Below, one piece after another: positions 8,527-28,850 of a DNA stretch of 30,000 nt. The notes below the pieces were generated by a model. That model searched no databases, had not been told where the DNA came from, and saw only the letters and a program-made list of their open reading frames with translations. How positions within the stretch are numbered: position 1 is the first letter of the stretch; the number at the start of each line of letters is the position of its first letter. The stretch covers positions 24,349 through 54,348 of the forward strand of contig NZ_WTVQ01000010.1 of NCBI RefSeq assembly GCF_012910955.1, given 5' to 3'. Source of the DNA: Aromatoleum diolicum (GTDB taxonomy: Bacteria; Pseudomonadota; Gammaproteobacteria; Burkholderiales; Rhodocyclaceae). Both the position numbers and the translations under genes were made by a program.

Positions 8527-9489
8527 TCAGCTGCGTGCCGCCGCGAGTGCCTGCGTCAGCTCCGGGACGAGCTGGAACAGGTCGCCGACGAGGCCGTAGT
8601 CGGCCACCTGGAAGATCGGCGCCTCCTCGTCCTTGTTGATCGCGACGATGACCTTGCTGTCCTTCATGCCGGCGAGATGCTGGATGGCGCCGGAGATGCC
8701 GACCGCGACATACAGCTGCGGTGCGACGATCTTGCCGGTCTGGCCGACCTGCAGCTCGTTCGACACGTAGCCCGAATCGACCGCCGCGCGGGAGCCGCCG
8801 ATCCCGGCGCCGAGGATGTCTGCGAGCGGTTCGAGGGTCTGGTGGAAGTTTTCCTTCGAGCCCATCGCCCGGCCGCCGGACACGATGATGCGCGCGGCGG
8901 TGAGTTCGGGACGGGCCGACTGCACCAGCTGCTGGCCGACGACCCTGGCCTTGCCACGATCGCCGGTCGCCGCAACCGCTTCGACCGGTGCCGCATTGCC
9001 CCCGGCCTCGACCGCCGGGAAGGCCGTGGCACGCACCGACAGCACGCGCACGCGCTCGGCACAACGCACTTTCGCGAGCAGGCTGCCGGCGTAGATCGGG
9101 CGCACGAAGGTGTCGCGATTTTCACACTCGACGACTTCGGTGATCTCGCTGACCATGCCGACGTCGAGCAGCGCGGCGACGCGCGGCAGCAGGTTCTTGC
9201 CGGCGGCGGACGCGATCGCCAACACATGGGTGTAGCCCCGGCCGGCGAGCTGCACGATCAGCGGCGCGACGTTCTCGGCGGTGAAATGCGCGTATTCCGC
9301 CGCTTCGGACGTCAGCACGCGGGTCACGCCCGGGTAGCTGCGCGCCTGCTCGGCGGCCGCGGCGACACCGCTGGCACCGACGACCAGCAGGTCGATCTCG
9401 CCACCGATCTTCGTCGCCACGGCGACGAGGTTGGCGCTCATCGGCGACAGCTGGCCGCCATTCTGTTCTGCAATGATCAGACTCTTCAT
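8527..9489 (-). CDS. etfA: electron transfer flavoprotein, alpha subunit
   Basis: [14 protein letters not shown]... and the FAD-site signature [19 protein letters not shown]. Three consecutive ATGs (9495/9492/9489). GAGAGGA abuts the first, so the third has the best spacing. Confidence 0.9.
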
Positions 9490-9513
9490 CATCATCCTCT
9501 CGCGTCAGGTGCC

Positions 9514-10263
9514 TTACAGCACCCGCGTGTCATCCTTCAGCTTGTGCACCAGTTCGGCGACCGAACCGACCTTGATGCCGCCCTTGCGCTCCGGCGGTGT
9601 ATAGACCGACAGCGTCGCGACGCGCGGCGCGACATCGACGCCCAGCTCGGCGGCCTTCAGCGTGTCGAGCGGCTTCTTCTTCGCCTTCATGATGTTCGGC
9701 AGCGTCGCGTAGCGCGGCTCGTTCAGGCGCAGGTCGGCGCTGACGACCGCCGGCAGCGCGAGCGCCAAGGTCTCGAGACCGCCGTCGACTTCGCGTGTGA
9801 CTTCGATCGTCCCGTCGGCGACGGACAGCTTCGACGCGTAGGTCGCCTGCCCCCAGTCGAGCAGCGCGGCGAGCATCTGCGCGGTCTGGTTGGCGTCGTC
9901 GTCGATCGCCTGCTTGCCGCAGATCACCAGCTGCGCGCCTTCCTTGTCGGCGACGACCTTCAGCAGCTTGGCGACGGCGAGCGACTGCAGCTCGGCATCA
10001 GTTTCAACGAGGATTGCGCGGTCGGCACCCATCGCCAGCGCGGTGCGCAGCGTTTCCTGACAGGCCGCGATGCCGCAGGACACCGCGATGACTTCGCTCG
10101 CGACACCGGCCTCCTTCAGCCGCACCGCTTCCTCGACGGCGATCTCGTCGAAGGGGTTCATCGACATCTTGACGTTGGCGAGCTCGACGCCCGAACCATC
10201 GGACTTCGGGCGCACCTTGACGTTGTAGTCCGCGACCCGCTTTACCGGAACCAGCACTTTCAT
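9514..10263 (-). CDS. etfB: electron transfer flavoprotein, beta subunit
   Basis: [46 protein letters not shown] is the classic EtfB N-terminus. GGGAGA lies upstream of ATG 10263. Confidence 0.9.
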
Positions 10264-10279
10264 TCGCAATATCTCCCGT

Positions 10280-11809
10280 TCATTCCTTGAAGTGTTCGCC
10301 GCTGATCAGCTTCGGCGCCTGCGGCAGCAGCGGCTTGAAGCCCATGCGGTCGAGGATGTCGCGCTGCACATCGACGCCCGGCGCGATCTCTTCGAGCACG
10401 ATGCCGTCCTGGGTCAGGCGGAACACCGCGCGCTCGGTGATGTACAGCACCTCCTGCCCGCGCAGCACCGCCTGCGGCCCGGAGAAGGTGATCTGGTCGA
10501 CGTCGGCGACGACTTTCGACACGTCACCGTTGCGCTCGACGTGCAACTCGCCGTGGCCGGTCGTGAGCTTCGATCCCTTGGTGTCGAAGTTGCCGCAGAA
10601 CACCACCTTGCGCGCGTTCTGCGCGATGTCGATGAAGCCGCCGGGGCCGACGGTGAGGCCGCCGAGCTTGGACGCATTGACGTTGCCGTGCTGGTCGAAC
10701 TCGCCGAAGCCGAGGAAGGCGATGTCCAACCCGCCGCCCGAGTAGAAGTCGAACTGCGAGGGCGCATCGATCATTGCCGACGCATTGCGCGCGAAGCCGA
10801 ACAGCATGCCGTCGAGCAGGTTGCCGCCGTAGGTGCCGTGCTCGATGGTCTGGTAGTAGCGGTCGATGTCGCCACGCGCCGCGACGAGCTTCGCCACCGC
10901 ATCCGGCACGCCGACGCCGTAGTTGATCACCGCGCCGTCGCGCAGCTCCTCGGCGGCGCGGCGGGCGGTCGCCTGGCGCACCGACAGTGGCTGCGGCGCT
11001 TCGACCGGCACCGGGCCGTGGCGCTCGCCCGAGATCGTCGGGTCATAGACGATGTCGTAGCTCTGCGACTGCGACGGATCGACCACGACCGCATCGACGA
11101 TCGCACCGGGGATGCGCACCGAGCGCGCCGGCAGCGTGCCGACATCGACCGCGGTGCGCACCTGCACGATCACCTTGCCGCCGGAGTTGTGCGCGGCGAG
11201 CGCGACCGCATAGGCGTCGAGGTTCGCCGGTTCCTGGTCCATGCTGATGTTGCCGTGCGCGTCGGCGTAGGAGCCGCGGATGATCGCGACATTCACCGGG
11301 AAAGGCTTGTAGCGCAGGTATTCCTTGCCGCCGAGCTCGACGACCTCGACGAGGTCTTCCTTGGCCGACTTGTTCATCTTGCCGCCGTCGATACGCGGAT
11401 CGACGAAGGTGCCGAGGCCCACGTGCGTCAGCAGACCCGGCCGGCCAGCGCCGATTTCGCGGAACAGCTGCGCGATCACGCCGCCAGGCAGCACATAGGC
11501 TTCGATCTTCTCGTCGCGCGCCAACTCCTGCATGCGCGGCGACCACACCCAGTGGCCACCGATGACGCGCTTGACCATGCCTTCGTAGGCGAAGCAGTTC
11601 ATCCCCTTGGTCTTCTTGTCGCCGATCCCGAGGGCGTGGACGACGGTCAGGTTGCGCGGCTGCGCGCTTTCCTGAAAGCGCTTTTCGAGCGCCGCGAAAA
11701 TGCACGAGGCTTCGACGAGGCCGCCACCACCACCGATCAGACCGACGGTGTCGCCATCCTTGACCAGCGCGACGGCGTCGGCCGCGCTCATGAATTTATT
11801 GATTGCCAT
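10280..11809 (-). CDS. fused-subunit family I acyl-CoA:carboxylate CoA-transferase (YdiF / propionate CoA-transferase type)
   Basis: 509 aa. [52 protein letters not shown] and [36 protein letters not shown] match, from memory, YdiF-type enzymes along the whole length. Confidence 0.9.
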
Positions 11810-11833
11810 TGCTGTTCCCTTCTACCGTCGCGA

Positions 11834-13000
11834 TCAGAGCGTGCCGTACAGCGCTTCGCCGTGCTTCATCGCGCTGCGCGCAACAACGGTGCGGTGGATT
11901 TCGGAGGTGCCGTCGAAGATGCGGTAGATGCGCGCATCGCGGTACATGCGCTCGATCGGCAGATCGGCGCAGTAGCCCATGCCGCCATACACCTGCACGG
12001 CGCGGTCGGCGACGCGGCCGAGCACTTCCGAGACGTAGAACTTGGCCATCGCGATCTTGTCGCGCGCGTCGATGCCGTTGTCGATGTCGCTCGCGGCATC
12101 CAGCACCAGCAGGCGCGAGGCGTTGATCTCGACGACGCTGTCCGCAATCATCTGCTGGATCATCTGGAAGTCGCCGATCGGCTTGCCGAACTGCTTGCGC
12201 TCCTGCGCATACGACACCATCAGGTTGAGCAGGCGCACCGACTTGCCGACGGCGCGCGCACACACCTGCGCCAGCCGCACGCGACCCAGCGTTTCGAGGA
12301 TCAGCTTGAAGCCCTGCCCTTCGCCGCCGAGCAGGTTCTCCGGGCCGACGGGGACTTCGTCAAACGCCAGTTCGACGTGACTGGTGCCGGTGAGACCCAT
12401 CATTTTCTGGTCGCGGCCGATGATGAAGCCCGGCGTGCCCTTGTCGACCAGGAACAGCGAGATGCCCTTCGCGCCGGCGCTCGCGTCGGTGACCACGGAC
12501 ACCACGAAGAAGTCCGAGAACTCGCCGTCGCTGATGAAGTGCTTGCCGCCGGTGATCTTCCAGCCGCCCTTGCCGTCGGGGACCGCGCGCGTCTTGATGG
12601 CCGCGGCATCGGAGCCGGCATTCGGTTCGGTGATCGCGATCGAGCAGGTGCGCTCGCCGCGCACGGTGGGCAGCAGCCAGCGCTCGCGCTGGGCTTCGTT
12701 GCACTTCAGCAGCACTTCATACACGTTGCCGAAGGCGCGGCGGATCAGGATGTCCTTGGCGTGGCCGAACTGTTCCTCGACGAGCATCGTGTCGACCGCC
12801 GACAGCCCGCCGCCACCGAACTCCTCGGGGATGTTCATCGCGTACATGCCGTTCGCGCTCGCCTTCTCGAACAGCGCGCGCGCCTTCTCCGGCGCGAGGC
12901 GGCCGGTCTCCTCGATTTCGTCTTCGAGCGGCAGCATCTCGTTCTCGACGAAGCGGCGCACGGTTTCGACAAGCATTTTCTGTTCGGAAGTCAGGTTCAT
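11834..13000 (-). CDS. acyl-CoA dehydrogenase
   Basis: Internal ATG 13000 (MNLTSEQKMLVETVRRFVENE...), with GGAGA 7 nt upstream, gives 388 aa. ACAD motifs AITEPNAGSD, YAQERKQFGKPIGDFQMIQ and VYGGMGY are present. The track ORF extension to 13477 overlaps iclR and is rejected. Confidence 0.9.
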   Translation of the reverse strand: MNLTSEQKMLVETVRRFVENEMLPLEDEIEETGRLAPEKARALFEKASANGMYAMNIPEEFGGGGLSAVDTMLVEEQFGHAKDILIRRAFGNVYEVLLKCNEAQRERWLLPTVRGERTCSIAITEPNAGSDAAAIKTRAVPDGKGGWKITGGKHFISDGEFSDFFVVSVVTDASAGAKGISLFLVDKGTPGFIIGRDQKMMGLTGTSHVELAFDEVPVGPENLLGGEGQGFKLILETLGRVRLAQVCARAVGKSVRLLNLMVSYAQERKQFGKPIGDFQMIQQMIADSVVEINASRLLVLDAASDIDNGIDARDKIAMAKFYVSEVLGRVADRAVQVYGGMGYCADLPIERMYRDARIYRIFDGTSEIHRTVVARSAMKHGEALYGTL

Positions 13001-13050
13001 GTGGATGTCTCCAGGGGTTTCATTGAATGCCGGAACGGCGGGGGAGCGCG

Positions 13051-13881
13051 TCAGGCCGCGCGCTGTCGGCCCGGCGCGGACTCGGCCACGGTCGGATTGA
13101 TGCTTCTGAGGTATTCGGAAAGCGGGCTGACCGCCGACAACTCGTCGGCCGCCGCAAGAAGTTCGGGGGCCAGCGCGTCCATCGCCGCTTCGGTCAGGCG
13201 CACGGTCGGGCCGGCGATGCTGAGCACGCCGGTGACGCGCGCGGAATGGGGTTCGCGCACCGCGGCGGCCATCGACGACATGCCCGGCCCCCAGGTTTCG
13301 ATCGCGCGGCTGTAGCCCCGCTCGCGCGCATCGGCGACGCAGGCAAGCACTTCGGCGATCGTCTTCGGCACCTTCGGGCCGCGCTGGTCGAGCAGCGTGA
13401 AGCCCTGGCGGGCGACATGCTCGACCGCCTCGTTCTCCGGCAGGCTGGCAAGCCAGATCATGCCGCTCGACGAGCAAAACAGCGCCGCTTCGCCGCCCAT
13501 GTCGGGGTCGAAACGCAGCCCGCTGCGCGCGCCCTGCGCCTTCGCGACGAAAGGCAGGCGACCGTTATCGACGACCGCCAGGCGCACCAGTTCGCCGCTG
13601 ACGGCAGCCAGGCGGTTGAGCACCGGCTGCACCACTTCGACGATGCCGCTGCTGCCGAGCTGCTTGAAGCCCAGCGACATCAGTCGCGTCGTCAGCAGGT
13701 AGCGCGCCGAATCCTTGTCCTGCACCACGTAGTGCAGTTGCGCCAGTTCGGCCAGCAGGCGATGCGCGCCGCTCTTGGGCATGCCGAGGCGGTCGGCAAC
13801 GTCCTGCAGATTCAGGCCGCGCGGATGCTCAACCAGCAGCTCGAGAGCACCCATCGCACGAGCAAGGAGACTTCCAGCCAT
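13051..13881 (-). CDS. IclR family transcriptional regulator (copy 1)
   Basis: 276 aa. N-terminal wHTH (LNLQDVADRLGMPKSGAHRLLAELAQLHYV) and a C-terminal IclR effector domain. GAGGTG lies 5 nt upstream of the ATG. Confidence 0.9.
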   Translation of the reverse strand: MAGSLLARAMGALELLVEHPRGLNLQDVADRLGMPKSGAHRLLAELAQLHYVVQDKDSARYLLTTRLMSLGFKQLGSSGIVEVVQPVLNRLAAVSGELVRLAVVDNGRLPFVAKAQGARSGLRFDPDMGGEAALFCSSSGMIWLASLPENEAVEHVARQGFTLLDQRGPKVPKTIAEVLACVADARERGYSRAIETWGPGMSSMAAAVREPHSARVTGVLSIAGPTVRLTEAAMDALAPELLAAADELSAVSPLSEYLRSINPTVAESAPGRQRAA

Positions 13882-13900
13882 TTCTGCACCTCACGAAAAC

Positions 13901-13915
13901 TTGAACTTGGTTCAA
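13901..13915. promoter_or_regulatory. perfect palindrome TTGAAC-TTG-GTTCAA, candidate IclR operator
   Basis: Read directly. Its centre is 27 bp upstream of the iclR-1 start codon, immediately 5' of the SD. Same core (GAAC-N3-GTTC) as 27931-27943 and 28096-28108. Confidence 0.55.
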
Positions 13916-13919
13916 CTTT

Positions 13920-13932
13920 AGAACTGCCTTCA
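13920..13932. promoter_or_regulatory. imperfect second half-operator AGAAC-TGC-CTTCA
   Basis: Lies 18 bp centre-to-centre from the perfect palindrome. One mismatch to GAAC-N3-GTTC. Confidence 0.35.
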
Positions 13933-13965
13933 AGTCCTGTCAAGGCAAAAATCTGTCCAACAAAA

Positions 13966-14010
13966 TTAAGTTGCGTTTTAGAAAGAAAACGCCGTTGTTA
14001 AGTTGCGTTT
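13966..14010 (+). repeat. 13-bp direct repeat TTAAGTTGCGTTT x2 (13966-13978 and 13998-14010, 32-bp register)
   Basis: Read directly. The second copy supplies the -35 element of the predicted promoter P1. Confidence 0.7.
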
Positions 14011-14031
14011 GTCGAAACACTGTTCTATATT
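14003..14031 (+). promoter_or_regulatory. predicted sigma70-type promoter P1 with embedded operator (drives the TIM-barrel gene 14191..15027)
   Basis: TTGCGT (14003-08), then a 17-nt spacer ttgtcGAAACACTGTTC, then TATATT (14026-31). Same layout as P2 and P3. Confidence 0.45.
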
Positions 14032-14190
14032 TCGCTCATTAATGAATCGATCGGTCGTACCTTGAGCATGAGCCCCCGGTTTCCGCAACACCGCCGGGGT
14101 GCCACTGAAGCCGGAAACTGGCGCCATAAGCCGGCCTCCGGCGAACCGGTGCAGCCGTTCTCTTGTCTTGACTATCTGGAGGAATCCCTC

Positions 14191-15027
14191 ATGGCGCACC
14201 AGTTCTCCCTCGCTCACCTCTCCGTGCTGACGACTTCGCCCGCGGAGATGGTGCAGATCGCCGCGAAAACCGGTTACGACTTCGTCAGCTTCCGCCTCAC
14301 CGCCGTCACGACGACCGAACACGTGTTCGCGCTGCAGAATGCTCGTGCGCTGATGAACGAGACCAAGGCCCTGCTCGCCGCCACCGGCGTGAAGGTGCTG
14401 GATATCGAACTGGCGCGCATGCCCGCGGAGATCGAGCCGGAAACCTACGTCCCGGTGCTCGAAGCCGCCGCCGAACTGGGCGCCCGCCACATCCTCGCGC
14501 AGCTGCCCGACGCCAACCGCGAACGCGCCACCGAGCGCTTCGCCCGCCTGTGCGACCTCGCCCTGCCCTACAAGCTGACCGTCGACCTCGAATACCCGAG
14601 CTGGACCGAGACACCGAACCTCGCCGCCGCCGCCGCCGTCGTGCGCGCGGTCAATCGCCCGAACGCCGGCATCCTGGTCGACACCCTGCATTTCGACCGC
14701 GCCCGCGACAGCCTCGAAGAACTGCGCAAGCTGCCCGCCGAGTGGTTCCATTTCGCCCAGGTGTGCGACGCCCCGGCGGAGATCCCGAGCACCGTCGAGG
14801 GCCTGATCCACACTGCCCGCAGCGAGCGCAACTTCCTCGGCGAAGGCGGTATCGACGTGCGCAGCATCCTCGACGCGATGCCGGCCGGCATCCCCTACTC
14901 GCTCGAAATCCCCACCGACACGCTGGCGCTGACCGTCAGTGCGGAAGAGCGCGCACGTCGCTCGATCCGCGCCGCCGAGGCCTACCTCGACGGTCTGCAC
15001 GGCCAGCGTCTGAAAAAATCGGCCTGA
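14191..15027 (+). CDS. sugar phosphate isomerase/epimerase family (xylose-isomerase-like TIM barrel) protein, copy 1
   Basis: ATG 14191 with GGAGGA 7 nt upstream. 278 aa. Family-typical pattern (VSFRL..., LVDTLHF, SLEIP). The track ORF start at 14062 adds an Arg/Pro-rich leader with no SD. Confidence 0.85.
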   Translation: MAHQFSLAHLSVLTTSPAEMVQIAAKTGYDFVSFRLTAVTTTEHVFALQNARALMNETKALLAATGVKVLDIELARMPAEIEPETYVPVLEAAAELGARHILAQLPDANRERATERFARLCDLALPYKLTVDLEYPSWTETPNLAAAAAVVRAVNRPNAGILVDTLHFDRARDSLEELRKLPAEWFHFAQVCDAPAEIPSTVEGLIHTARSERNFLGEGGIDVRSILDAMPAGIPYSLEIPTDTLALTVSAEERARRSIRAAEAYLDGLHGQRLKKSA

Positions 15028-15037
15028 AGCTCTCCTC

Positions 15038-15087
15038 GCGCGGACGTCGGCAACTCCTCTCCCTCCCCGCCTTCGTCCGCGCTTTTT
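15038..15087 (+). terminator. rho-independent terminator-like element
   Basis: 9-bp perfect stem GCGCGGACG (15038-46) / CGTCCGCGC (15074-82) followed by TTTTTCTT. The loop is large (27 nt). It starts 11 nt after the stop codon. Confidence 0.5.
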
Positions 15088-15188
15088 CTTCTCCGGTGAT
15101 CGCGGCGTCGCCGCTCCAGCCTGCGGCCTGTGATCCCGGTAGCGACGCCCCATCCGCAGCGCCTTTCTCGCCCAGGAGTGCCGGTTTC

Positions 15189-15809
15189 ATGAGCCGTCCC
15201 CCCGTCGTCGCAGACTCGCGCACCGCCCCACACATTGCCCCACCCTCGCTCGGCGAGCTGTTCCGCGCCTGCTCGCGCGTCGGCCTGTCGGGTTTCGGCG
15301 GCGTGCTGCCGCTGCTGCGGCACCTGCTCGTCGACGAGCGTCGCCTGATGAGCGGCGCCGACTTCAACGCGCTGCTGGGTCTGTGCCAGTTTCTGCCCGG
15401 TTCAAACGTCGTGAATCTCGCGGTGTGCGTCGGTGCGCGCTTTCACGGCGCGCGCGGCGCGATCGTCGCGACCGCGGGCCTGCTGCTCGGCCCCTTCCTG
15501 GTGATGATGGCGCTCGCGACCGCCTACGGCCTGTGGGGGCAGCTCGCGATCGTGCAGGACATGCTGCGCGGCATCGCCGCGGCCGGCGCCGGCCTGCTGT
15601 TCGCGACCGCCCTGAAGATGGCGCGCAACGTGCCGGAACGCTGGATCTACCTGCCCTTTTCCGCACTGATCCTCGTCGCGCTGGTGGTCCTGCGCCTGCC
15701 GCTGCCGCCGCTGATGCTCGCCCTGCTCGGCATCACCGGCCTGATCGCATACCGCCGTGCCCGAAACGCCGCGGCGATCGCGACAAGCGCCGGCGAGGAG
15801 CGCGCATGA
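15189..15809 (+). CDS. chrA: chromate ion transporter (CHR) family, short-chain N-type half
   Basis: 206 aa from ATG 15189. LGELFRACSRVGLSGFGGVLPLLRHLLVDERRLMSGADFNALLGLCQFLPGSNVVN is typical of CHR. Its stop overlaps the next start (ATGA at 15806-15809). Confidence 0.85.
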   Translation: MSRPPVVADSRTAPHIAPPSLGELFRACSRVGLSGFGGVLPLLRHLLVDERRLMSGADFNALLGLCQFLPGSNVVNLAVCVGARFHGARGAIVATAGLLLGPFLVMMALATAYGLWGQLAIVQDMLRGIAAAGAGLLFATALKMARNVPERWIYLPFSALILVALVVLRLPLPPLMLALLGITGLIAYRRARNAAAIATSAGEERA

Positions 15810-16330
15810 TCGCGCTGCTGGCCGACCTCTTCCTGCAGTTCAGCGTGCTGACCGTTGTCGCCTTCGGCGGCATCACCGCGATGCTGCCCGAACTGCACCG
15901 CCTCGTCGTCGAACAGCGGCAGTGGATGGACGCCACGACCTTCGCGCACCTTTTCGCGATCGCGCAGGCGGCGCCGGGGCCGAACCTGCTGGTCGTCTCG
16001 CTGATCGGCTGGAAAGTCGCCGGCATCCCCGGCGCGATCGTCGCGACACTCGCGATCAGCCTGCCGATGAGCCTCGTGATCTTCTTCCTCTACCGCCACT
16101 GGGAACGCTTCCGCGATGCCCCTTGGCGTGCGGCGATCCAGACCGGCGTCGCCCCGCTCGCGGTGGGCCTGGTGTGCGCCAGCGGCTGGCTGATCGGCGC
16201 GTCCGCGGGCCTTGGCGTGCGCGGCGTGCTGCTGACGCTGATCTGCACCGCGCTGATGCTGGTCCGTTCCTGGCACCCGCTGTGGTACATCGGCGCCGGC
16301 GCCGCGGCGGGCGCCTTCGGCCTGGTCTAG
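15806..16330 (+). CDS. chrA: chromate ion transporter (CHR) family, short-chain C-type half
   Basis: 174 aa. LTVVAFGGITAMLPELHRLVVEQRQWMDATTFAHLFAIAQAAPGPNLL. Translationally coupled to the preceding half. Confidence 0.85.
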   Translation: MIALLADLFLQFSVLTVVAFGGITAMLPELHRLVVEQRQWMDATTFAHLFAIAQAAPGPNLLVVSLIGWKVAGIPGAIVATLAISLPMSLVIFFLYRHWERFRDAPWRAAIQTGVAPLAVGLVCASGWLIGASAGLGVRGVLLTLICTALMLVRSWHPLWYIGAGAAAGAFGLV

Positions 16331-16437
16331 ATTCGCAGTCCCCGGGTGCCGCGCCGACGCGACACCCGCTTCCGCCACGTCGGCTTGCCGTCCGTGGCCC
16401 GATGTTATGCTCGGCGGCCCGCCACTGGATTCGACGC

Positions 16438-17379
16438 ATGCTGGAAATTTTCACGATCACCGGTCCGGTCTTCATCGTCATCGCGATCGGCTTCGCCGCG
16501 GTCCGCAGTGGCCTCTTCGACAAGGCCGAGACCCGCATCCTCGGCAAGTTCGCGATCAACGTCGCCTTGCCGGCGATGCTGCTGAAGGCGCTGACCGAAC
16601 GCCCGTTCGCCGAGATCATGAACACCGGCTACCTCGCCGCGTACGCACTGGGCTCGCTCGCCGCATTCGCGATCGGCATCGCCGTCGCGCGCTACGCCCA
16701 GCACAAGAGCCTGCAGCTGAGCGCCATCCAGGGAATGGGCATGTCGCTGTCGAACAGCGGCTTCATCGGTTACCCGATCGTGCTGCAACTGCTCGGCCCA
16801 CCCGCCGCGATCGCGCTGGCGCTGTGCTTTCTCGTCGAGAACCTGCTGATCGTGCCGCTCGCGCTGTCGCTCGCCGAGGGCAGCAACGGCAACGGCGACA
16901 AGGTGCACAAGGTCGTGCTCGCCACCTTCGCCCGGCTCGGCAAGAACCCGCTGATCATCGCGATCGTCGCGGGCTTCACGTGCGCGCTGCTGGGCATCCG
17001 CCTGCCGACGCCGGCCGCACGCGCGATCGAAATGCTGTCGCTCGCCGCGGCGGGCATCGCGCTGTTCGTGATCGGCGGCACGCTGGTCGGTCTGAAGGTG
17101 GCGGGCATGCGCCGCGACATGGCGCAGATCGTCGCCGGCAAGCTGTTGCTGCATCCGCTCGCGGTATTCGTGGCGCTGTGGCTGCTGCCGCCGCTCGACC
17201 CGGCGCTGCGGATCGCAGCGATCACCTTCGCATGCATGCCAATGGCGAGCATCTATCCGATCATCGCGCAGAAATTCGGCCACGAACAGCTCGCCGCGGC
17301 AGCGCTGATGGCCGCGACCGTGACCGGATTCTTCTCGATCAGCGCGGTGATCTGGCTGCTGCGGCCGACGCTGGCCTGA
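16438..17379 (+). CDS. AEC (auxin efflux carrier / MdcF-like) family permease
   Basis: 313 aa from ATG 16438 (MLEIFTITGPVFIVIAIGFAAVRSGLF...), about 10 TM. The track ORF 15757..17379 carries a spurious Arg-rich extension. Confidence 0.9.
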   Translation: MLEIFTITGPVFIVIAIGFAAVRSGLFDKAETRILGKFAINVALPAMLLKALTERPFAEIMNTGYLAAYALGSLAAFAIGIAVARYAQHKSLQLSAIQGMGMSLSNSGFIGYPIVLQLLGPPAAIALALCFLVENLLIVPLALSLAEGSNGNGDKVHKVVLATFARLGKNPLIIAIVAGFTCALLGIRLPTPAARAIEMLSLAAAGIALFVIGGTLVGLKVAGMRRDMAQIVAGKLLLHPLAVFVALWLLPPLDPALRIAAITFACMPMASIYPIIAQKFGHEQLAAAALMAATVTGFFSISAVIWLLRPTLA

Positions 17380-17421
17380 CGAGGATGTCCGCTCGCGGCG
17401 CGCGCAGGGCGCCAGCCCGCG

Positions 17422-18171
17422 TCACGCGAACGCATCCCACAGCAGCTTCACGCCCGACAGCCCCAGCATCGCGGTGGCGAACACGTAAAACACCCGCTCG
17501 GGAATCCGTTTCAGCGCCTTCAGACCGATCCACACCCCGACCGGTGCGATCGGCGCGAGCATCAGCGACACCTTGAAGCTCTCCCACGAGAACAGGCCGA
17601 GCGCGACATAGGGCACGATCTTCACCGCGTTCACCACGGTGAAGAAGATCACCGTCGTCGCGACGAAGGTCTCCTTCGCCAGGCCACGGTTCAGCAGATA
17701 CACCAGCAGCGGCGGCGAACCGGCATGCGCGATGGTGCTGGTGAAACCGGACACCGCCCCCCAGAACAGGCCCGCCAGCTTGCCCGGCGGTCCCGACAGT
17801 TTCAGACGGGCACGCAGGCCGAAGATCCGGTCGAGCGAGAACAGTACCGCGATCGCGCCGACGCAGCCCTTGACGGCCCTTTCCGGCATCCACCCGAAGA
17901 CCACCGCCCCGACCAGCATGCCCAGGCCCGCCGCCGGCAGCAGAATGCGGATCTCCGCGACCGACCACTTGCGCCAGTATGCGCGGATGCCGATCCAGTC
18001 GATGAACACCAGCAGCGGCAGCATCACCGCCGCCGCCTGGCCCGGCGTGATCCACATCGCCATGAAGGGCACGGCGAGCCCGCCGAAGGCGCCGCCGAGG
18101 CCGGATTTGGAGATGCCGGTCAGCAGCACGGCAATGCCGGCGACGATCCAGCCGGCGGTGTCGAATGTCAT
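17422..18171 (-). CDS. TauE/SafE (DUF81) family anion permease
   Basis: 249 aa. LTGISKSGLGGAFGGLAVPFM and GFTSTIAHAGSPPLLVYLL form the duplicated family motif. Confidence 0.9.
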   Translation of the reverse strand: MTFDTAGWIVAGIAVLLTGISKSGLGGAFGGLAVPFMAMWITPGQAAAVMLPLLVFIDWIGIRAYWRKWSVAEIRILLPAAGLGMLVGAVVFGWMPERAVKGCVGAIAVLFSLDRIFGLRARLKLSGPPGKLAGLFWGAVSGFTSTIAHAGSPPLLVYLLNRGLAKETFVATTVIFFTVVNAVKIVPYVALGLFSWESFKVSLMLAPIAPVGVWIGLKALKRIPERVFYVFATAMLGLSGVKLLWDAFA

Positions 18172-24008: not shown

Positions 24009-24061
24009 GTGCTACCCCTTACGTGACAGTGGATCGACATCGATCTCGTCTAGTTGGGTAA

Positions 24062-24090
24062 ATAATAGAACGCAATTCTTTCTAGCGCAA
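24062..24090 (-). promoter_or_regulatory. predicted sigma70-type promoter P2 with embedded operator (drives the caiB-like to aroD operon)
   Basis: Minus strand reads TTGCGC (24090-85), then a 17-nt spacer tagaaAGAATTGCGTTC, then TATTAT (24067-62). The operator AGAAC-GCA-ATTCT occupies 24067-24079. Predicted 5' UTR is about 47 nt. Confidence 0.5.
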
Positions 24091-24274
24091 CTGTTTTTAA
24101 AACTGCGTTTTATTTTTAGACGACGCGGTGGATCCGAAGCTCACCAAGGAATGTTGACCATCGGCGCCGTAGGAGCGGCTTCAGCCGCGAACACGCCCGG
24201 CACGAGAGCTTCCCAGCGAAAGCCGCGCCCACGGGCGATTCGCCCATCGGCGAGGTATCGCGTCAGGCTCTCGG

Positions 24275-24314
24275 AAAAAAGGGGAAAGACGGGGAGCGGG
24301 GCACCTGCGCCCCG
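24275..24314 (-). terminator. terminator-like element after the TIM-barrel-2 gene
   Basis: Minus strand reads CGGGGC-gcaggt-GCCCCG, then CTCCCCGTCTTTCCCC, then TTTTTT. The T6 run is 16 nt from the first stem, and alternative GGGG/CCCC pairings are possible. It starts 5 nt after the stop codon. Confidence 0.35.
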
Positions 24315-24318
24315 GTGC

Positions 24319-25167
24319 TCAGGTGTTGCCGGCGGCCACCCTGGCGGCGAGCCACTGCACCGACGCCTGCGCGCGGGCCATCACGAGCGGCAACTGGCTG
24401 TGCTGGTTGTCGTCGCTGAACACATCGAGCGTGTAGTCGCCGCGGTAACCATTGCTTTCGAGCTGCGTCAGCAACTCGGTGATCAGCTGGCCGTGCGCGC
24501 CCTCGCCGGGAAATACCCGTTCGTGGCGCGAGACTTCGACGAACTCCTCGATCTCGGAAATGAAATCGAACTTGTAGTCGGAAAACTGCACGAGGAAGAT
24601 CCGGTCCGCCGGAATGTCCTTCAAGGTATCCGCTGCGGTCTGGCGCATCAGGATCTGGAAGGAATCGATCACCAGCCCGACGTTGCGACGGTTCGCCAGC
24701 TCGACGACGCGCCACGCGTCGGTGTACTCGCTGACCCAGCGTCCCCACGCCAGCGCCTCGTAGCCGATGCGGATGCCGAAGGGAGTCGCCAGCGTGCCGA
24801 GCACCGAAAGATTGCGTGCCAGCAGCACCGGATCGGCAACCGCCGTCGGCGAAGTCGAGGACGACACGATCAGCAGCCGGCAGCCGACCGAGGCCGCCAG
24901 TTCGAGAATCGACTTCGCGGCGTCGAGGCGGTATTCGAACTCCCGCTCCGTATTGCTGCCCATCTCGCGCAACACCTGGAAGGCGCTGACCTTCAGGCTG
25001 CTCTCGCGCACCCGCCGCGCCGCCACCGTCGCCCCTTCGGGATGCGCCAGCAGATCCTTCGCGCTCAGCTCGACCGCCCCGAACCCCGCGGCCAGCGCGG
25101 CGTCGATCTTCTCCTGCAGCGTTCCCGGCAGGGTCGCGCTATTGATCCCGATTCTACGAATATCCAT
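24319..25167 (-). CDS. QsuB/QuiC/Qa-4-type dehydratase domain protein (3-dehydroshikimate-dehydratase-like, xylose-isomerase-like TIM barrel), copy 2
   Basis: 282 aa. INSATLPGTLQEKIDAALAAGFGAVEL, IRIGYEALAWGRWV, DSFQIL, IPADRIFLVQFSD, SRHERVFPGEG and TLDVFSDD mirror the N-terminal DSD domain of QsuB-type enzymes as I recall them. Confidence 0.85.
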   Translation of the reverse strand: MDIRRIGINSATLPGTLQEKIDAALAAGFGAVELSAKDLLAHPEGATVAARRVRESSLKVSAFQVLREMGSNTEREFEYRLDAAKSILELAASVGCRLLIVSSSTSPTAVADPVLLARNLSVLGTLATPFGIRIGYEALAWGRWVSEYTDAWRVVELANRRNVGLVIDSFQILMRQTAADTLKDIPADRIFLVQFSDYKFDFISEIEEFVEVSRHERVFPGEGAHGQLITELLTQLESNGYRGDYTLDVFSDDNQHSQLPLVMARAQASVQWLAARVAAGNT

Positions 25168-25215
25168 ATCGCTGTCTGCGCTACCGCTGGGGAGTGGAGA
25201 GGAGGGTCTCGCGCT

Positions 25216-26106
25216 TCAGGCTGCGGCCGGACGCTGCACGACCTCGAAATAGAACGGCTCGACGACCGGCGCGGTAACCAGGCGCGTGACGCCCGGCCGG
25301 TCCGCATCGGCCTCGGGGTCGCGAGCCAGCGGGATCCCGTTCGCGCGGAAGGCCGCGGCGACGTCCGCCAGCGCGTCAGTCTCGATGCCGATGTCGGCAA
25401 TCCCCTCGGCATTCACGGGCTCGCTTGCCGCGGCACCCGGCGTCGCATCGGCCTCGGGCCGGATGACGATGCGGATCTTGCCGCAGGGGCTCTCCATCCA
25501 GATGCAGCCGCCCGCCGTGGTCTGTGTCGTGCGGAAACCGAAAACCTGCTGGTGGAACTCGATCCACTCCTGCTCGCGGCCGGCGCAGACGGTCAGCGTG
25601 ATGTGTTCGACACGCGTGAGCCCGAGCGGCTTCACCGGCGGCGACATCTGCGGCAAGGGCAGGAAATCGACGTCGTAGATCGTGTGGTCGCCATAGCGAT
25701 CGACAAAGTAGATGTGCGTCCCGCCGACGCTGATGATGGCCGGAATGTTCAGCTCCATCGCGCCCGCGTGCGGTGGAACGTCCCAGGCGCCGCTCGCCAA
25801 CGCCCGCTTGTACGCCGACGCGACGTTCTTCACGCGCACCGCGATCGCGCAGATGCCCGGCCCGTAGCTGCGGTTGAACGTCTGCGCGAAGCTCTCTTCG
25901 TCCGCATTGATCAGGAAATTGATGTCGCCCTGCCGGAACAGCACCACGTTTTTCGATCTGTGTTTCGCAACGGCCGAGAATCCCATCTGCTCGAAATGTG
26001 CTCCCAGCGCAACGGCATCGGGGGCGGCAAATTCGACGAACTCCAGGCCATCCAGCCCCAGAACATTTTCTGGTGCTTCAGAGGTCGAAAAAAACGGGTC
26101 TTGCAT
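25216..26106 (-). CDS. 4-hydroxyphenylpyruvate-dioxygenase-like (VOC superfamily) protein, truncated type
   Basis: 296 aa. The N-terminal half is strongly HPPD-like (GLDGLEFVEFAAPD...GFSAVAKHRSKNVVLFRQGDINFLINAD...MELNIPAI). It ends at YFEVVQRPAAA and so lacks the HPPD C-terminal helix. AGGAG lies 8 nt upstream. Confidence 0.85.
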   Translation of the reverse strand: MQDPFFSTSEAPENVLGLDGLEFVEFAAPDAVALGAHFEQMGFSAVAKHRSKNVVLFRQGDINFLINADEESFAQTFNRSYGPGICAIAVRVKNVASAYKRALASGAWDVPPHAGAMELNIPAIISVGGTHIYFVDRYGDHTIYDVDFLPLPQMSPPVKPLGLTRVEHITLTVCAGREQEWIEFHQQVFGFRTTQTTAGGCIWMESPCGKIRIVIRPEADATPGAAASEPVNAEGIADIGIETDALADVAAAFRANGIPLARDPEADADRPGVTRLVTAPVVEPFYFEVVQRPAAA

Positions 26107-26302
26107 CCTTTGGCTCCTAACTGCCGCAAGGCATCAGACATATGAGGTTTCACAACGCGGCGATGCCGCCACCGCCCTTTTATCATATGCCCGGCAGCAG
26201 ACCCAACACCTTTCTTCGGCCTGCTGTGGCGACAATGAGAAAATGCCGCCGCACACCGCAGCGAAAGCCTTGGCGTGGGGCGGCATGGTCAAGCCGGTCC
26301 GC

Positions 26303-26346: not shown

Positions 26347-27837
26347 TCAGCGACGGATGAACGGGTTCGGCACGTCGAGGTCGGTCGAGATCCACACGCA
26401 CTTGGTTTCGAGGTACTCGCGGATTGCGTCGGCCCCCGACTCGCGGCCGATGCCCGAGCGCTTGTAGCCGCCGAACGGAGCGGTGTAGCTCGTCGCGCGG
26501 TAGTTGTTCACCCACACGGTGCCGGCCTTGAGCTTGTCGGTGACGTACATCGCGCGGTGCAGGCTCTTGGTCCACACGGCGCCGGCGAGGCCGTACAGCA
26601 CGTCGTTGCCGATGCGCACGGCGTCTTCCTCGTCCTTGAACGGGATCACGCACAAGACCGGGCCGAACACCTCTTCCTGGGCGATGCGCATCTTGTTGTT
26701 CACGCCGGTGAAGATCGTCGGCTCGACGAACTGGCCGGCGCCGAGGTCGGGGCGCGAGCGGCCACCCAGCACACACTTCGCGCCTTCGCCCTTGGCGATC
26801 TCGATGTAGCTCATGATCTTCTCGAACTGCGGACGCGTCGCGATCGGGCCGACCTGGGTGTCGAGCTGCGAGGGGTCGCCGATCTTGGCGGTGCTGACGA
26901 ATTCGACCAGACGGCGTACGACTTCATCGTGAATGCTTTCCTGCACCAGCAGGCGCGAACCGGCCTGGCAGGTCTGGCCCGAAGCCGCGAACACGCCGGA
27001 CACGATGCCCTTCACGGCCTGATCCAGATCCGCGTCGTCGAACACGATGTTGGGCGACTTGCCGCCCAGTTCCAGCGTCACGGTCTTCAGGCCGCGCGCG
27101 GCCGCTTCGTAGATCTTCTGGCCGGCAATCTCGCCCCCGGTGAAGCCGATGTGCGCGGTGTCGGGATGCTCGACCAGCGGCGCGCCGACTTCATGACCGA
27201 AACCGGTGACGACGTTCACCACCCCCGGCGGGAAGCCGGCTTCGGCGAACAGCTTGGCGAGCTCGATCGCCGAAGCGGAGGTGAATTCGGACGGCTTGAT
27301 CACGATCGTGCAGCCCGCGGCCAGCGCCGGCGCAAGCTTCCAGCTGGTCAGCGTGAGCGGCGAATTCCACGGCGTGATGATCACGACGACGCCCTTGGCC
27401 TCGTACTTCGTGTAGCAGAAGACGCCCTTCTTGTCGGTCGGGATGACGTGGCTTTCGATCTTGTCGGCCAGGCCGGCGTAGTAATGGAAGTACTCGCCCA
27501 GGTACTTGACCTGCGCGACGACCTCCGCAGCCAGCTTGCCGTTGTCGCGGCGCTCGATCTCGGCCAGGTGCTCGGCGTTGGCGACGATCAGGTCGGCGAC
27601 CTTGCGCATCAGTTTGCCGCGCTGGCTTGCGGTCAGCGACGGCCATTCGCCTTCCTCGAAGGCCCGGTGCGCGGCCGCAACGGCCGCATCGACGTCGGCC
27701 TTGTTGCCACGGGCGATCTCGGCCCAAGCTTCGCCGGTATAGGGGTTTTCGGTCGGAAAGTACTCGCCCGAAGCCGGGGGGACGATCTTGCCGTCGATGT
27801 AGTTGCCGTACTTGGGGAGTGCCTTTGCGTTTTCCAT
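26347..27837 (-). CDS. NAD(P)-dependent aldehyde dehydrogenase
   Basis: 496 aa. Catalytic Glu (LELGGKSP) and Cys (GQTCQAGSR) motifs, plus FTGGEIAG and EEVFGPV. GGAGA lies 5 nt upstream. Confidence 0.9.
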   Translation of the reverse strand: MENAKALPKYGNYIDGKIVPPASGEYFPTENPYTGEAWAEIARGNKADVDAAVAAAHRAFEEGEWPSLTASQRGKLMRKVADLIVANAEHLAEIERRDNGKLAAEVVAQVKYLGEYFHYYAGLADKIESHVIPTDKKGVFCYTKYEAKGVVVIITPWNSPLTLTSWKLAPALAAGCTIVIKPSEFTSASAIELAKLFAEAGFPPGVVNVVTGFGHEVGAPLVEHPDTAHIGFTGGEIAGQKIYEAAARGLKTVTLELGGKSPNIVFDDADLDQAVKGIVSGVFAASGQTCQAGSRLLVQESIHDEVVRRLVEFVSTAKIGDPSQLDTQVGPIATRPQFEKIMSYIEIAKGEGAKCVLGGRSRPDLGAGQFVEPTIFTGVNNKMRIAQEEVFGPVLCVIPFKDEEDAVRIGNDVLYGLAGAVWTKSLHRAMYVTDKLKAGTVWVNNYRATSYTAPFGGYKRSGIGRESGADAIREYLETKCVWISTDLDVPNPFIRR

Positions 27838-28127: not shown

Positions 28128-28850
28128 ATGAGCAGCGAAGGCGTCGCATCCGTAGAACGCGCCCTGACCATCCTCGACGTGTTCACCGACCGCGATAGAA
28201 GTCTGACCCTCACCGAGATTTCCAAGCGTGCCGGCTTCTACAAGAGCACGACGCTGCGCCTGGCCGAATCGCTGGAGAAGTTCGGCTACCTGCGCCGGCT
28301 CGAGGACGGCGCCTATCGTCTCGGCCCCAAGCCCTTGTTCCTCGGTGCGCTGTACCAGAAGCATTTCAGCACCGCCGACTTCGTGCCGCAGTTGATGCGC
28401 CGGATGTCGGAAGAGCTGCGTGAAGGCATCTCCTTCTTTGTACGCGACGAAGACCGCCGCGTCTGCCTGCACCGCGTCGAATCACCGCGCGCGATCCGCG
28501 ACGCGATCCACGAGGGTGACGCGTTTCCGCTCAACAACGGCGCTTCGGGCCACGTGCTGCTCGCGTTCAGCGGCCTGTCCGGCGGCAAATACGACCAGAT
28601 TCGCGAACGTTACTACGCGATGTCGGTCGGCGAGCGGGATCCCGAAACCACCGCGGTCGCGGCGCCGGTGTTCGCCGTGCAGCAGCGGCTGGTCGGGGCG
28701 CTGTCCGTGTCCGGGCCGAAATACCGTCTCGACGAGAAGGCGCTCGAGGACATCGTGCCGACGCTGCAGAAATACGCCGCGGAACTCACTCACCTGTTCG
28801 GCGGCGCCTGGCCCGACCTCGGCCAGGCATCCAAGCGTTCGCACGGCTGA
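28128..28850 (+). CDS. IclR family transcriptional regulator (copy 2)
   Basis: 240 aa. wHTH LTLTEISKRAGFYKSTTLRLAESLEKFGYL and an IclR effector domain (GALSVSGP). Confidence 0.9.
   Translation: MSSEGVASVERALTILDVFTDRDRSLTLTEISKRAGFYKSTTLRLAESLEKFGYLRRLEDGAYRLGPKPLFLGALYQKHFSTADFVPQLMRRMSEELREGISFFVRDEDRRVCLHRVESPRAIRDAIHEGDAFPLNNGASGHVLLAFSGLSGGKYDQIRERYYAMSVGERDPETTAVAAPVFAVQQRLVGALSVSGPKYRLDEKALEDIVPTLQKYAAELTHLFGGAWPDLGQASKRSHG

Follow-up and report, generated by a model that had tools for sequence, protein, structure and literature searches.

The window analyzed here, a 30,000-nt stretch of Aromatoleum diolicum contig NZ_WTVQ01000010.1 (positions 24,349 to 54,348, assembly GCF_012910955.1), carries on its minus strand two adjacent genes that correspond to the two modules of a fused 3-dehydroshikimate dehydratase (DSD) of the QuiC1/QsuB type (Table 1). 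The upstream gene encodes a short protein resembling 4-hydroxyphenylpyruvate dioxygenase (HPPD), hereafter the partner, and the downstream gene a stand-alone TIM barrel, hereafter the barrel. Each protein was 100% identical to an NCBI entry of A. diolicum; the annotations read simply 'HPPD family protein' for the partner and 'sugar phosphate isomerase/epimerase' for the barrel. In Pfam, the partner open reading frame (ORF) matched Glyoxalase_5, the HPPD N-terminal domain (1.8e-53), with a further weak Glyoxalase match, and the barrel ORF matched AP_endonuc_2 (1e-23). The NCBIfam QuiC model NF042435 covers the barrel at 5-249 and the partner at 287-528 of its 635 positions, hence the pair represents the two QuiC halves in reversed order; scores of 157.4 bits (barrel) and 127.6 bits (partner) are both below the curated equivalog cut-off of 1200 bits. 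A preliminary description of this DNA had reported two modules on separate genes, HPPD-like gene first, with a 48-nt gap, and the ORF coordinates and model matches agree. The pair thus lacks the single-polypeptide architecture of two-domain DSDs, consisting of two ORFs separated by a stop codon and a spacer, in inverted order.

Table 1. Genes and sequence features around the HPPD-like/TIM barrel gene pair (window coordinates)
Feature	Position	Strand	Basis or remark
IclR-family regulator	28128..28850	+	Domain match; divergent from the strand of the pair
Aldehyde dehydrogenase (ALDH)	26347..27837	-	Ortholog (74-79% identity) of the ALDH directly preceding the CoA-transferase gene in a widespread module
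Terminator-like hairpin with T-rich tail	26246..26264	-	Sequence scan; after the upstream ALDH gene
Block upstream of partner, TTGGGT...TATGATA	26181..26206	-	Conserved with A. evansii and A. tolulyticum
HPPD-like partner	25216..26106	-	ORF listing; 296 aa, ATG start
Spacer between partner and barrel ORFs	25168..25215	-	Sequence read; 48 nt
Stand-alone xylose-isomerase-like TIM barrel, predicted catalytic subunit	24319..25167	-	282 aa, ATG start
GC hairpin CGGGGC-GCAGGT-GCCCCG, then T-rich stretch	24297..24314	-	Read from sequence; just after the barrel stop codon
Block of ~87 nt ahead of CoA-transferase gene	24031..24117	-	Near-invariant across four Aromatoleum species, rest of gap variable
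CoA-transferase III	24008-22806	-	Domain match
Citrate-synthase-family, citryl-CoA-lyase-like	22809-21955	-	Domain match
Acetolactate synthase (ALS)-like thiamine pyrophosphate (TPP) enzyme	21867-20107	-	Domain match
Shikimate dehydrogenase (SDH)-like	20021-19161	-	Domain match
Type I dehydroquinase (DHQase)	19066-18284	-	Domain match
TIM2, second AP_endonuc_2 barrel	14062-15027	+	Precedes two ChrA-like genes and one Mem_trans gene

Genomes were scanned for relatives of the pair at one genome per species, and locus counts refer to the best 80 of at least 575 genomes with a barrel relative. The stand-alone barrel family is encoded in at least 575 species genomes, mostly of Burkholderiales and Rhodocyclales, including Collimonas, Herbaspirillum, Duganella, Massilia, Sphaerotilus, Hydrogenophaga, Polaromonas, Roseateles and others in addition to Aromatoleum. 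All barrel homologs down to approximately 40% identity were stand-alone proteins of 270 to 300 aa. A short HPPD-like ORF was found upstream on the same strand, as in A. diolicum, in 79 of the 80 loci, the single exception being a contig that begins 37 nt before the barrel gene. Given that the layout recurs in 79 independent species genomes, the pair is neither a chance arrangement nor the assembly or frameshift artefact that the preliminary description had listed among its refuting cases, but a genuine, conserved two-gene architecture and not a recent split.

The local sequence does hold one feature expected of a broken fusion gene. The partner ORF, spacer and barrel ORF share a single reading frame, interrupted by one TGA that is followed by 16 sense codons (SARPSSPLPSGSADSD; 25168-25218 on the minus strand, TGA included). 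We nevertheless give practically no credence to the idea that the split arose from faulty assembly, a sequencing error or a frameshift, or that a fused enzyme is decaying here into a pseudogene: the gene order is opposite to that of fused enzymes, spacing and frames vary among the genomes with the two-gene layout, both proteins are full length for their families, and the phmmer matches listed contained nothing longer than 500 residues that carried the barrel at its C-terminus, as expected of an HPPD-like-then-barrel fusion. The spacer codons encode a Ser/Pro-rich, linker-like peptide, and read-through of the TGA would yield a 579-aa HPPD-like-then-barrel fusion in A. diolicum. As the spacer in the other Aromatoleum genomes is 56 nt long and out of frame, such read-through was ruled out as the main explanation, and the in-frame state in A. 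diolicum is probably due to chance (about 0.2 by estimate). The partner gene is preceded by an AGGAG Shine-Dalgarno sequence at 26118-26114; no clear Shine-Dalgarno sequence was read ahead of the barrel ATG in A. diolicum.

Across the family the two genes are tightly spaced, the intergenic distance falling between -23 and +18 nt in about 60 loci, of which 18 show a 4-nt overlap. Looser arrangements occur in Oxalobacteraceae, where a shikimate dehydrogenase gene is intercalated between partner and barrel (about 837 nt), and in Aromatoleum, where the gap of 48-56 nt offers no obvious coupling. These cases would suit a scenario in which the two proteins are mere neighbors with independent functions that form no complex. 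We consider this very improbable in view of their co-occurrence in constant order and strand in all but one locus, the overlap of stop and start codons in many loci, and the existence of fused homologs. Furthermore, the pairwise distance matrices of partner and barrel are correlated (r = 0.89), and mean pairwise identity is similar for the two proteins (63% for partners, 65% for barrels); hence, the partner is under selection and not decaying.

QuiC1 of Pseudomonas putida (PDB 5hmq) and QsuB of Corynebacterium glutamicum contain the same two modules, a xylose-isomerase-like TIM barrel and an HPPD-fold module that is not known to be catalytic, and share with most relatives of the pair a neighborhood of DHQase, shikimate/quinate dehydrogenase and pca genes. 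Identity between their barrels and the stand-alone barrel is about 36-40%. Unlike these enzymes, the pair consists of two polypeptides encoded in the opposite order to the fused domains, the motif FPGEGxH is invariant in stand-alone barrels where QuiC1 has FPGQGEMD, and the metal histidines kept in QuiC1 are both mostly lost in the partners, which are also shorter owing to an internal deletion and a short tail. An exhaustive phmmer search (1.84 billion representatives) ranked approximately 27 stand-alone clusters highest (250-154 bits), followed by fused QuiC1/QsuB-type proteins of 550-650 aa with the barrel N-terminal. In a neighbor-joining tree rooted on fused N-domains, the stand-alone barrels formed one clade in which Aromatoleum was the earliest branch, and for 86 of 86 partners the bit score with genuine proteobacterial HPPDs exceeded that with the C-domain of QuiC1 or of the fused enzyme encoded on metagenomic contig L007. 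Because the barrels form their own clade, the partners are nearer to HPPDs and the gene order opposes the domain order, the pair represents an old, widespread betaproteobacterial two-gene lineage parallel to fused QuiC1/QsuB, as opposed to a recent fission, and the label of a 'split' QsuB/QuiC used in the preliminary description is imprecise. The accessible literature distinguishes four classes of DSD, and a two-subunit form is not among them (PMC7442255, PMC9324987). No description of a split or two-subunit DSD was found in the accessible literature, which is incomplete, and the two-gene form is thus provisionally new relative to the described classes. Both architectures coexist in one genome, since contig L007 encodes a pair (9046-10855, plus strand) at the end of a pcaHGBDC operon and, 5 kb away, a fused 642-aa QuiC1-type gene (15612-17540, minus strand).

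The best sequence and fold matches of the partner were true HPPDs (P. fluorescens 1cjx and P. putida 9qmf; 167 bits). An AF2 model (pLDDT 86.4, pTM 0.86) adopts the two-barrel HPPD, or vicinal-oxygen-chelate, fold, and Foldseek returned TMq values of 0.80-0.84 to Pseudomonas HPPDs and 0.80-0.82 to the C-domain of QuiC1 (5hmq). Motifs of the HPPD N-terminal half are strongly kept (HRSKNV.L.RQGDINF, MELNIPA, YFVDRYGD..IYDVDF). Residue-level alignment to 1cjx supports the earlier comparison, in which the first metal His is kept (VEHITL/IDHLTH), the second is replaced by Asp (EGIADIGIETD/EGIQHVAFLTD) and the Glu is kept (YFEVVQR/FFEFIQR). The A. diolicum triad is hence H168/D238/E288, in place of the 2-His-1-Glu Fe(II) triad of HPPD. 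The gating C-terminal helix is missing, as previously noted; the protein was said to stop about 5 residues after the Glu, and the actual number is 8, compared to 36 in true HPPDs. A further difference is an internal deletion of ~30 residues, reflected in a distance from second ligand to Glu of 50 residues versus 80 in true HPPDs. Given these losses and a score of 117.7 bits against TIGR01263, for which the cut-off is 277, the partner is not a true HPPD, as the preliminary description had anticipated.

That description left two options for the partner, a structural or regulatory subunit and a distinct metal-dependent isomerase or tautomerase. Comparison of 85 orthologous partners favors the former. 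G/R/E occupies the HPPD metal positions in 77 of 85, which have therefore lost both metal histidines; H/D/E was found in A. diolicum alone, H/C/E in the other Aromatoleum genomes examined, H/H/E in the metagenomic pair of L007, and E/V/E and H/S/G in two others. The internal deletion and short tail are common to all 85, and conservation is higher in the N-terminal than in the C-terminal half. Since the metal site is so widely lost while the partner is as constrained as the barrel, these data fit a pseudoenzyme kept for its structure, i.e. a non-catalytic scaffold as opposed to a new metalloenzyme. QsuB provides a precedent: no activity was detected for its HPPD-like C-domain, which was proposed to drive oligomerization, and removal of the domain converted the mainly octameric enzyme into a monomer with an approximately three-fold lower kcat (PMC7442255). 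Among the partners of loci L004-L087, the near-universal Arg at the former second metal position might bind a carboxylate ligand, which would make a regulatory or product-binding role possible.

Because the triad varies across the family, a metal-dependent isomerase or tautomerase fits poorly, and such a role is unlikely family-wide. A broader version, in which the partner is an active metalloenzyme whose His-Asp-Glu site isomerizes, tautomerizes or oxygenates the product of the dehydratase, could draw on the three potential ligands remaining in A. diolicum and on the fold that is predicted to be intact. We judge it improbable. In the other Aromatoleum genomes examined, Cys stands at the position of the second ligand, the great majority of orthologs lack both histidines, part of the catalytic barrel is missing along with the gating helix, and the corresponding domain of QsuB is without detected activity. 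The N-terminal half of HPPD, which is the better-conserved half in partners, is the non-catalytic domain. Catalysis by the partner in the Aromatoleum lineage alone is possible.

The barrel is homologous to the catalytic N-domain of two-domain DSDs. Its closest solved relative was QuiC1 (5hmq, residues 7-246; E 5.9e-39), and a family profile of barrels scored 216.6 bits (E 3.6e-63) against the same structure, with IolI next best at 78 bits. Active-site positions were mapped from the residue list in PMC9324987 and motif matching, giving E137, D168, Q171, Q194, D197, E222, H225 and D248 as predicted site residues. AsbF of Bacillus, used for this mapping, has the metal-binding carboxylates Glu142, Asp172 and Glu253 and the active-center residues His175 and His144 (PMC9324987). 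Matched by motif and not by structure, E137 and D168 are present in the A. diolicum barrel and the third carboxylate corresponds to D248, a predicted metal ligand that is Glu in 84 of 88 relatives; His144 has no equivalent. Position 171, Gln in A. diolicum, is His in 82 of 88 relatives. All family invariants, including those of the FPGEGxH motif, are retained (R67, D168, D197, R217, F219, E222, H225, Y241, G243, D252). A. diolicum departs from the crown-group signature, E137/H171/Q194/E248 together with G/R/E in the partner, by having Q171, D248 and an H/D/E partner. AsbF showed no detectable sequence similarity to the barrel in structure-sequence and family-profile searches; together with fungal Qa-4, it is a single-domain DSD, and a stand-alone barrel of ~280 aa can accordingly be a complete DSD that needs no partner.

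Genes for DHQase, shikimate dehydrogenase or protocatechuate degradation (pcaHG/pcaB) were located within 6 kb of the pair in 56 of 80 loci, its usual company being type II DHQase, shikimate/quinate dehydrogenase, pcaHG, pcaB and IclR. In Glaciimonas (L004), the order is partner, SDH, barrel, DHQase II, beside pcaHG-pcaB; in Crenobacter, the pair is followed by DHQase II and SDH with pcaHG 5 kb away; many Comamonadaceae have the order partner, barrel, pcaB; and in L007 pcaH-G-B-D-C, partner and barrel form one string. Apart from the fused gene on L007, no other QuiC1-type barrel homolog that could link dehydroshikimate to the pca genes was found in the loci searched. With the homology to QuiC1, this makes a two-subunit DSD the parsimonious reading, and formation of protocatechuate from 3-dehydroshikimate by the pair is a prediction supported by genomic context.

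We consider it probable, with moderate confidence, that the pair encodes the two subunits of a heteromeric DSD-type dehydratase, one of them a pseudoenzyme. The TIM barrel would be the metal-dependent catalytic subunit and, by analogy with QuiC1/QsuB, would dehydrate the 3-keto-4,5-diol of 3-dehydroshikimate to give protocatechuate. The partner would retain the HPPD fold without its chemistry, serving as a non-catalytic scaffold or oligomerization subunit as proposed for the QsuB C-domain. Both subunits would be produced stoichiometrically from one bicistronic unit beside an IclR regulator. The analysis itself establishes the homology of both halves, their strict co-occurrence, gene order and coupling, the family-wide loss of the metal site and the pathway context in other genomes; that the two proteins bind each other, that they act as a DSD and what they produce in A. 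diolicum is inferred.

The A. diolicum locus differs from this classical context. On the minus strand, the pair lies in the order ALDH, partner, barrel, CoA-transferase III, citryl-CoA-lyase-like, ALS-like TPP enzyme, SDH-like, type I DHQase and TauE, with the type I DHQase and SDH-like genes 5-7 kb downstream on the same strand. The pair also occurs in A. evansii, A. tolulyticum, A. toluolicum and Azoarcus sp. KH32C. The downstream gene order recurs in four other Aromatoleum genomes. In the three named Aromatoleum species, whose loci were examined, the downstream genes are as in A. diolicum, no ALDH gene separates IclR from the pair, and the IclR gene adjoins the pair directly. The ALDH, CoA-transferase, lyase and TPP enzyme belong to a module shared at 65-94% identity with other loci (L088-L167), and more than 517 close relatives of the lyase-like protein (65-87% identity) came from soil and peat metagenomes. 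The conserved unit comprises IclR next to ALDH, CoA-transferase, lyase and TPP enzyme, often followed by an AP_endonuc_2 barrel, TIM2, and a TRAP transporter. IclR homologs with 57-66% identity flank this module in metagenomes, and the IclR gene at 28128..28850 encodes the probable regulator of the region. Approximately half of the long module loci listed also have a DHQase II or SDH-like gene. Because ALDH directly precedes CoA-transferase in metagenomic module loci, even in L088, whose CoA-transferase is 91% identical, the A. diolicum pair is lodged between two module genes. Placement within the module was not part of the preliminary description, nor were the internal deletion of the partner and the active-site substitutions of the barrel. 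No described function was found for the module, and nothing on quinate or shikimate use by Aromatoleum was found in the accessible literature.

Several observations weigh against assigning DSD activity to the A. diolicum pair. The substitution H171Q falls at the position matched, by motif and not by structure, to the AsbF active-center residue His175 (PMC9324987), and E248D affects a predicted metal ligand. No pca genes occur within the 30-kb window, and the pair sits inside a module that in other loci comes with a distinct barrel of its own, TIM2. Outside Aromatoleum, the pair and the module are also neighbors in Casimicrobiaceae (L006), Motiliproteus (L032) and metagenome L110, and 8 of 8 TPP-linked loci, those of Aromatoleum included, deviate at predicted barrel active-site positions, compared to the 80 classical loci that keep E137/D168/H171/Q194/D197/E222/H225/E248 save for E248A in L007. 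The Aromatoleum barrels (L001, L008, L009 and the window) carry H171Q, with E248D in A. diolicum only; the L006 barrel has E137K, H171D and E248D, and the L032 barrel E137L, Q194H and E248T. The Aromatoleum partner retains a possible H-D/C-E metal site, and the function of the family as a whole rests on genomic context and homology. These deviations suggest altered specificity or relaxed constraint of the barrel where the module is present, and the substrate or product of the A. diolicum pair may consequently differ.

A specific alternative is that, in Aromatoleum and the other TPP-linked lineages, the pair was recruited into a non-aromatizing, oxygen-independent route of quinate/shikimate degradation. 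Dehydration of 3-dehydroquinate by the barrel, or its action on a related compound, would yield a cyclic 1,2-dione, whose ring the ALS-like TPP enzyme would cleave in the manner of IolD and cyclohexane-1,2-dione hydrolase (CDH); ALDH would oxidize the resulting aldehyde to a homocitrate-like acid, which the CoA-transferase would activate; and the citryl-CoA-lyase-like enzyme would release acetyl-CoA and a 2-oxo acid. We regard this as rather unlikely, although it is the main rival. A dehydroquinate-derived dione whose ring is opened, followed by cleavage of a homocitrate-like CoA ester, would suit the chemistry of the module. The C1(OH)(COOH) of quinate between two CH2 groups would leave a citrate-like skeleton after ring opening. 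The model rests by analogy on two systems, CDH (2pgn) and IolE/IolD, inosose dehydratase and TPP-dependent trihydroxycyclohexane-1,2-dione hydrolase, the point of comparison being an AP_endonuc_2 barrel next to an ALS-family TPP enzyme and ALDH in a cluster for carbocycle catabolism; the likeness is one of logic only. In its favor are the position of the pair between ALDH and CoA-transferase genes that are adjacent in the canonical module, recurrence of the association in Aromatoleum (five genomes) and in L006, L032 and L110, the alteration of every TPP-linked barrel, and the DHQase or SDH-like genes of about half of the long module loci listed. The denitrifier A. diolicum is known to possess a TPP-dependent cyclohexanedione hydrolase. 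However, the TPP enzyme encoded here is only a distant relative, scoring 181 bits against 2pgn and 270-278 bits against acetolactate synthases, which ruled it out as the A. diolicum CDH, and no IolD structure was present among its matches.

Other evidence also runs counter to the non-aromatizing route. The usual barrel of the module, TIM2, is present in the window, so the pair is not needed for the barrel step; between the pair and the CoA-transferase gene lies a conserved block resembling a promoter; the substitutions in Aromatoleum, L006 and L032 differ from each other and show no common new signature; and nothing relevant to a TPP/citryl-CoA-lyase route from quinate was found in the accessible literature. 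More doubtful still is the wider proposal that the Aromatoleum locus and the soil module of ALDH, CoA-transferase III, lyase, TPP enzyme, TIM2 and TRAP transporter constitute one undescribed oxygen-independent, non-aromatizing quinate/shikimate route, in which lyase action on a homocitrate-like acyl-CoA yields acetyl-CoA together with 2-oxoglutarate or its hydroxylated analog, and the pair with altered sites is an entry or branch-point enzyme in Aromatoleum. The module may represent a new carbocycle-degradation pathway.

If the pair catalyzes the DSD step, pathway reconstructions would miss the catabolism of quinate and shikimate to protocatechuate in hundreds of Burkholderiales and Rhodocyclales and would also wrongly add HPPDs. 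The family is, furthermore, a natural experiment on the role of the puzzling HPPD-like module of QuiC1/QsuB, here a separate protein that can be omitted, titrated or mutated. The stepwise loss of the metal site among partners, from H/H/E to H/D/E to G/R/E, documents an enzyme becoming a scaffold. A new architecture is also of some applied interest, as DSDs serve the bio-based production of protocatechuate, vanillin and muconate.

Candidate regulatory elements flank the pair. The conserved block upstream of the partner gene is a candidate promoter or operator of the pair, with spacing that does not fit sigma-70. The block ahead of the CoA-transferase gene contains A-rich repeats AAAAATAAAAC / GTTTTAAAAAC at 24117-24093, TTGCGC-17-TATTAT at 24090-24062 and the inverted repeat GATCGATGTCGATC at 24045-24031, and is probably a promoter with an operator. 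The GC hairpin just past the end of the barrel gene could act as a terminator but is a weak candidate. Because this hairpin follows the barrel, one conserved block precedes the partner and the other lies ahead of the CoA-transferase gene, the downstream genes would have their own promoter and the pair looks like a bicistronic unit of its own. A scan of promoters and terminators, including the hairpin after the ALDH gene, returned no more sites than expected from shuffled sequence. A promoter-like match at 25178-25151 was rejected as it ends downstream of the barrel ATG.

Additional gene sets were noted in the window and in related loci. At 13051-17379, an IclR gene (13881-13051, minus strand) is divergent from TIM2, two ChrA-like chromate-transporter-family genes and Mem_trans, and this run converges on TauE (18171-17422, minus strand). 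The same barrel-ChrA-ChrA unit occurs in metagenome L091, where it is oriented away from the CoA-transferase, lyase and TPP genes, and in A. evansii (L001), where it is located downstream. A separate acyl-CoA oxidation cluster that seems unrelated to the pair (8527-13477, minus strand) encodes a 547-aa acyl-CoA dehydrogenase along with electron transfer flavoprotein alpha and beta and a CoA-transferase of family I. In A. evansii, an ApbA-like reductase, a small glyoxalase, a MaoC dehydratase, another CoA-transferase III, shikimate dehydrogenase, TRAP DctP and type II DHQase are encoded just upstream of IclR (L001, 1258-6854), in what looks like a second hydroaromatic gene set. Beside the pair in Crenobacter (L003, 13246-20276), an IclR / FAD oxidoreductase / NIPSNAP / AP_endonuc_2 / FAD oxidoreductase / SDH-like / MFS set resembles the lig1/lig2 region of P. 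putida KT2440 (bioRxiv 10.1101/2025.08.13.670189).

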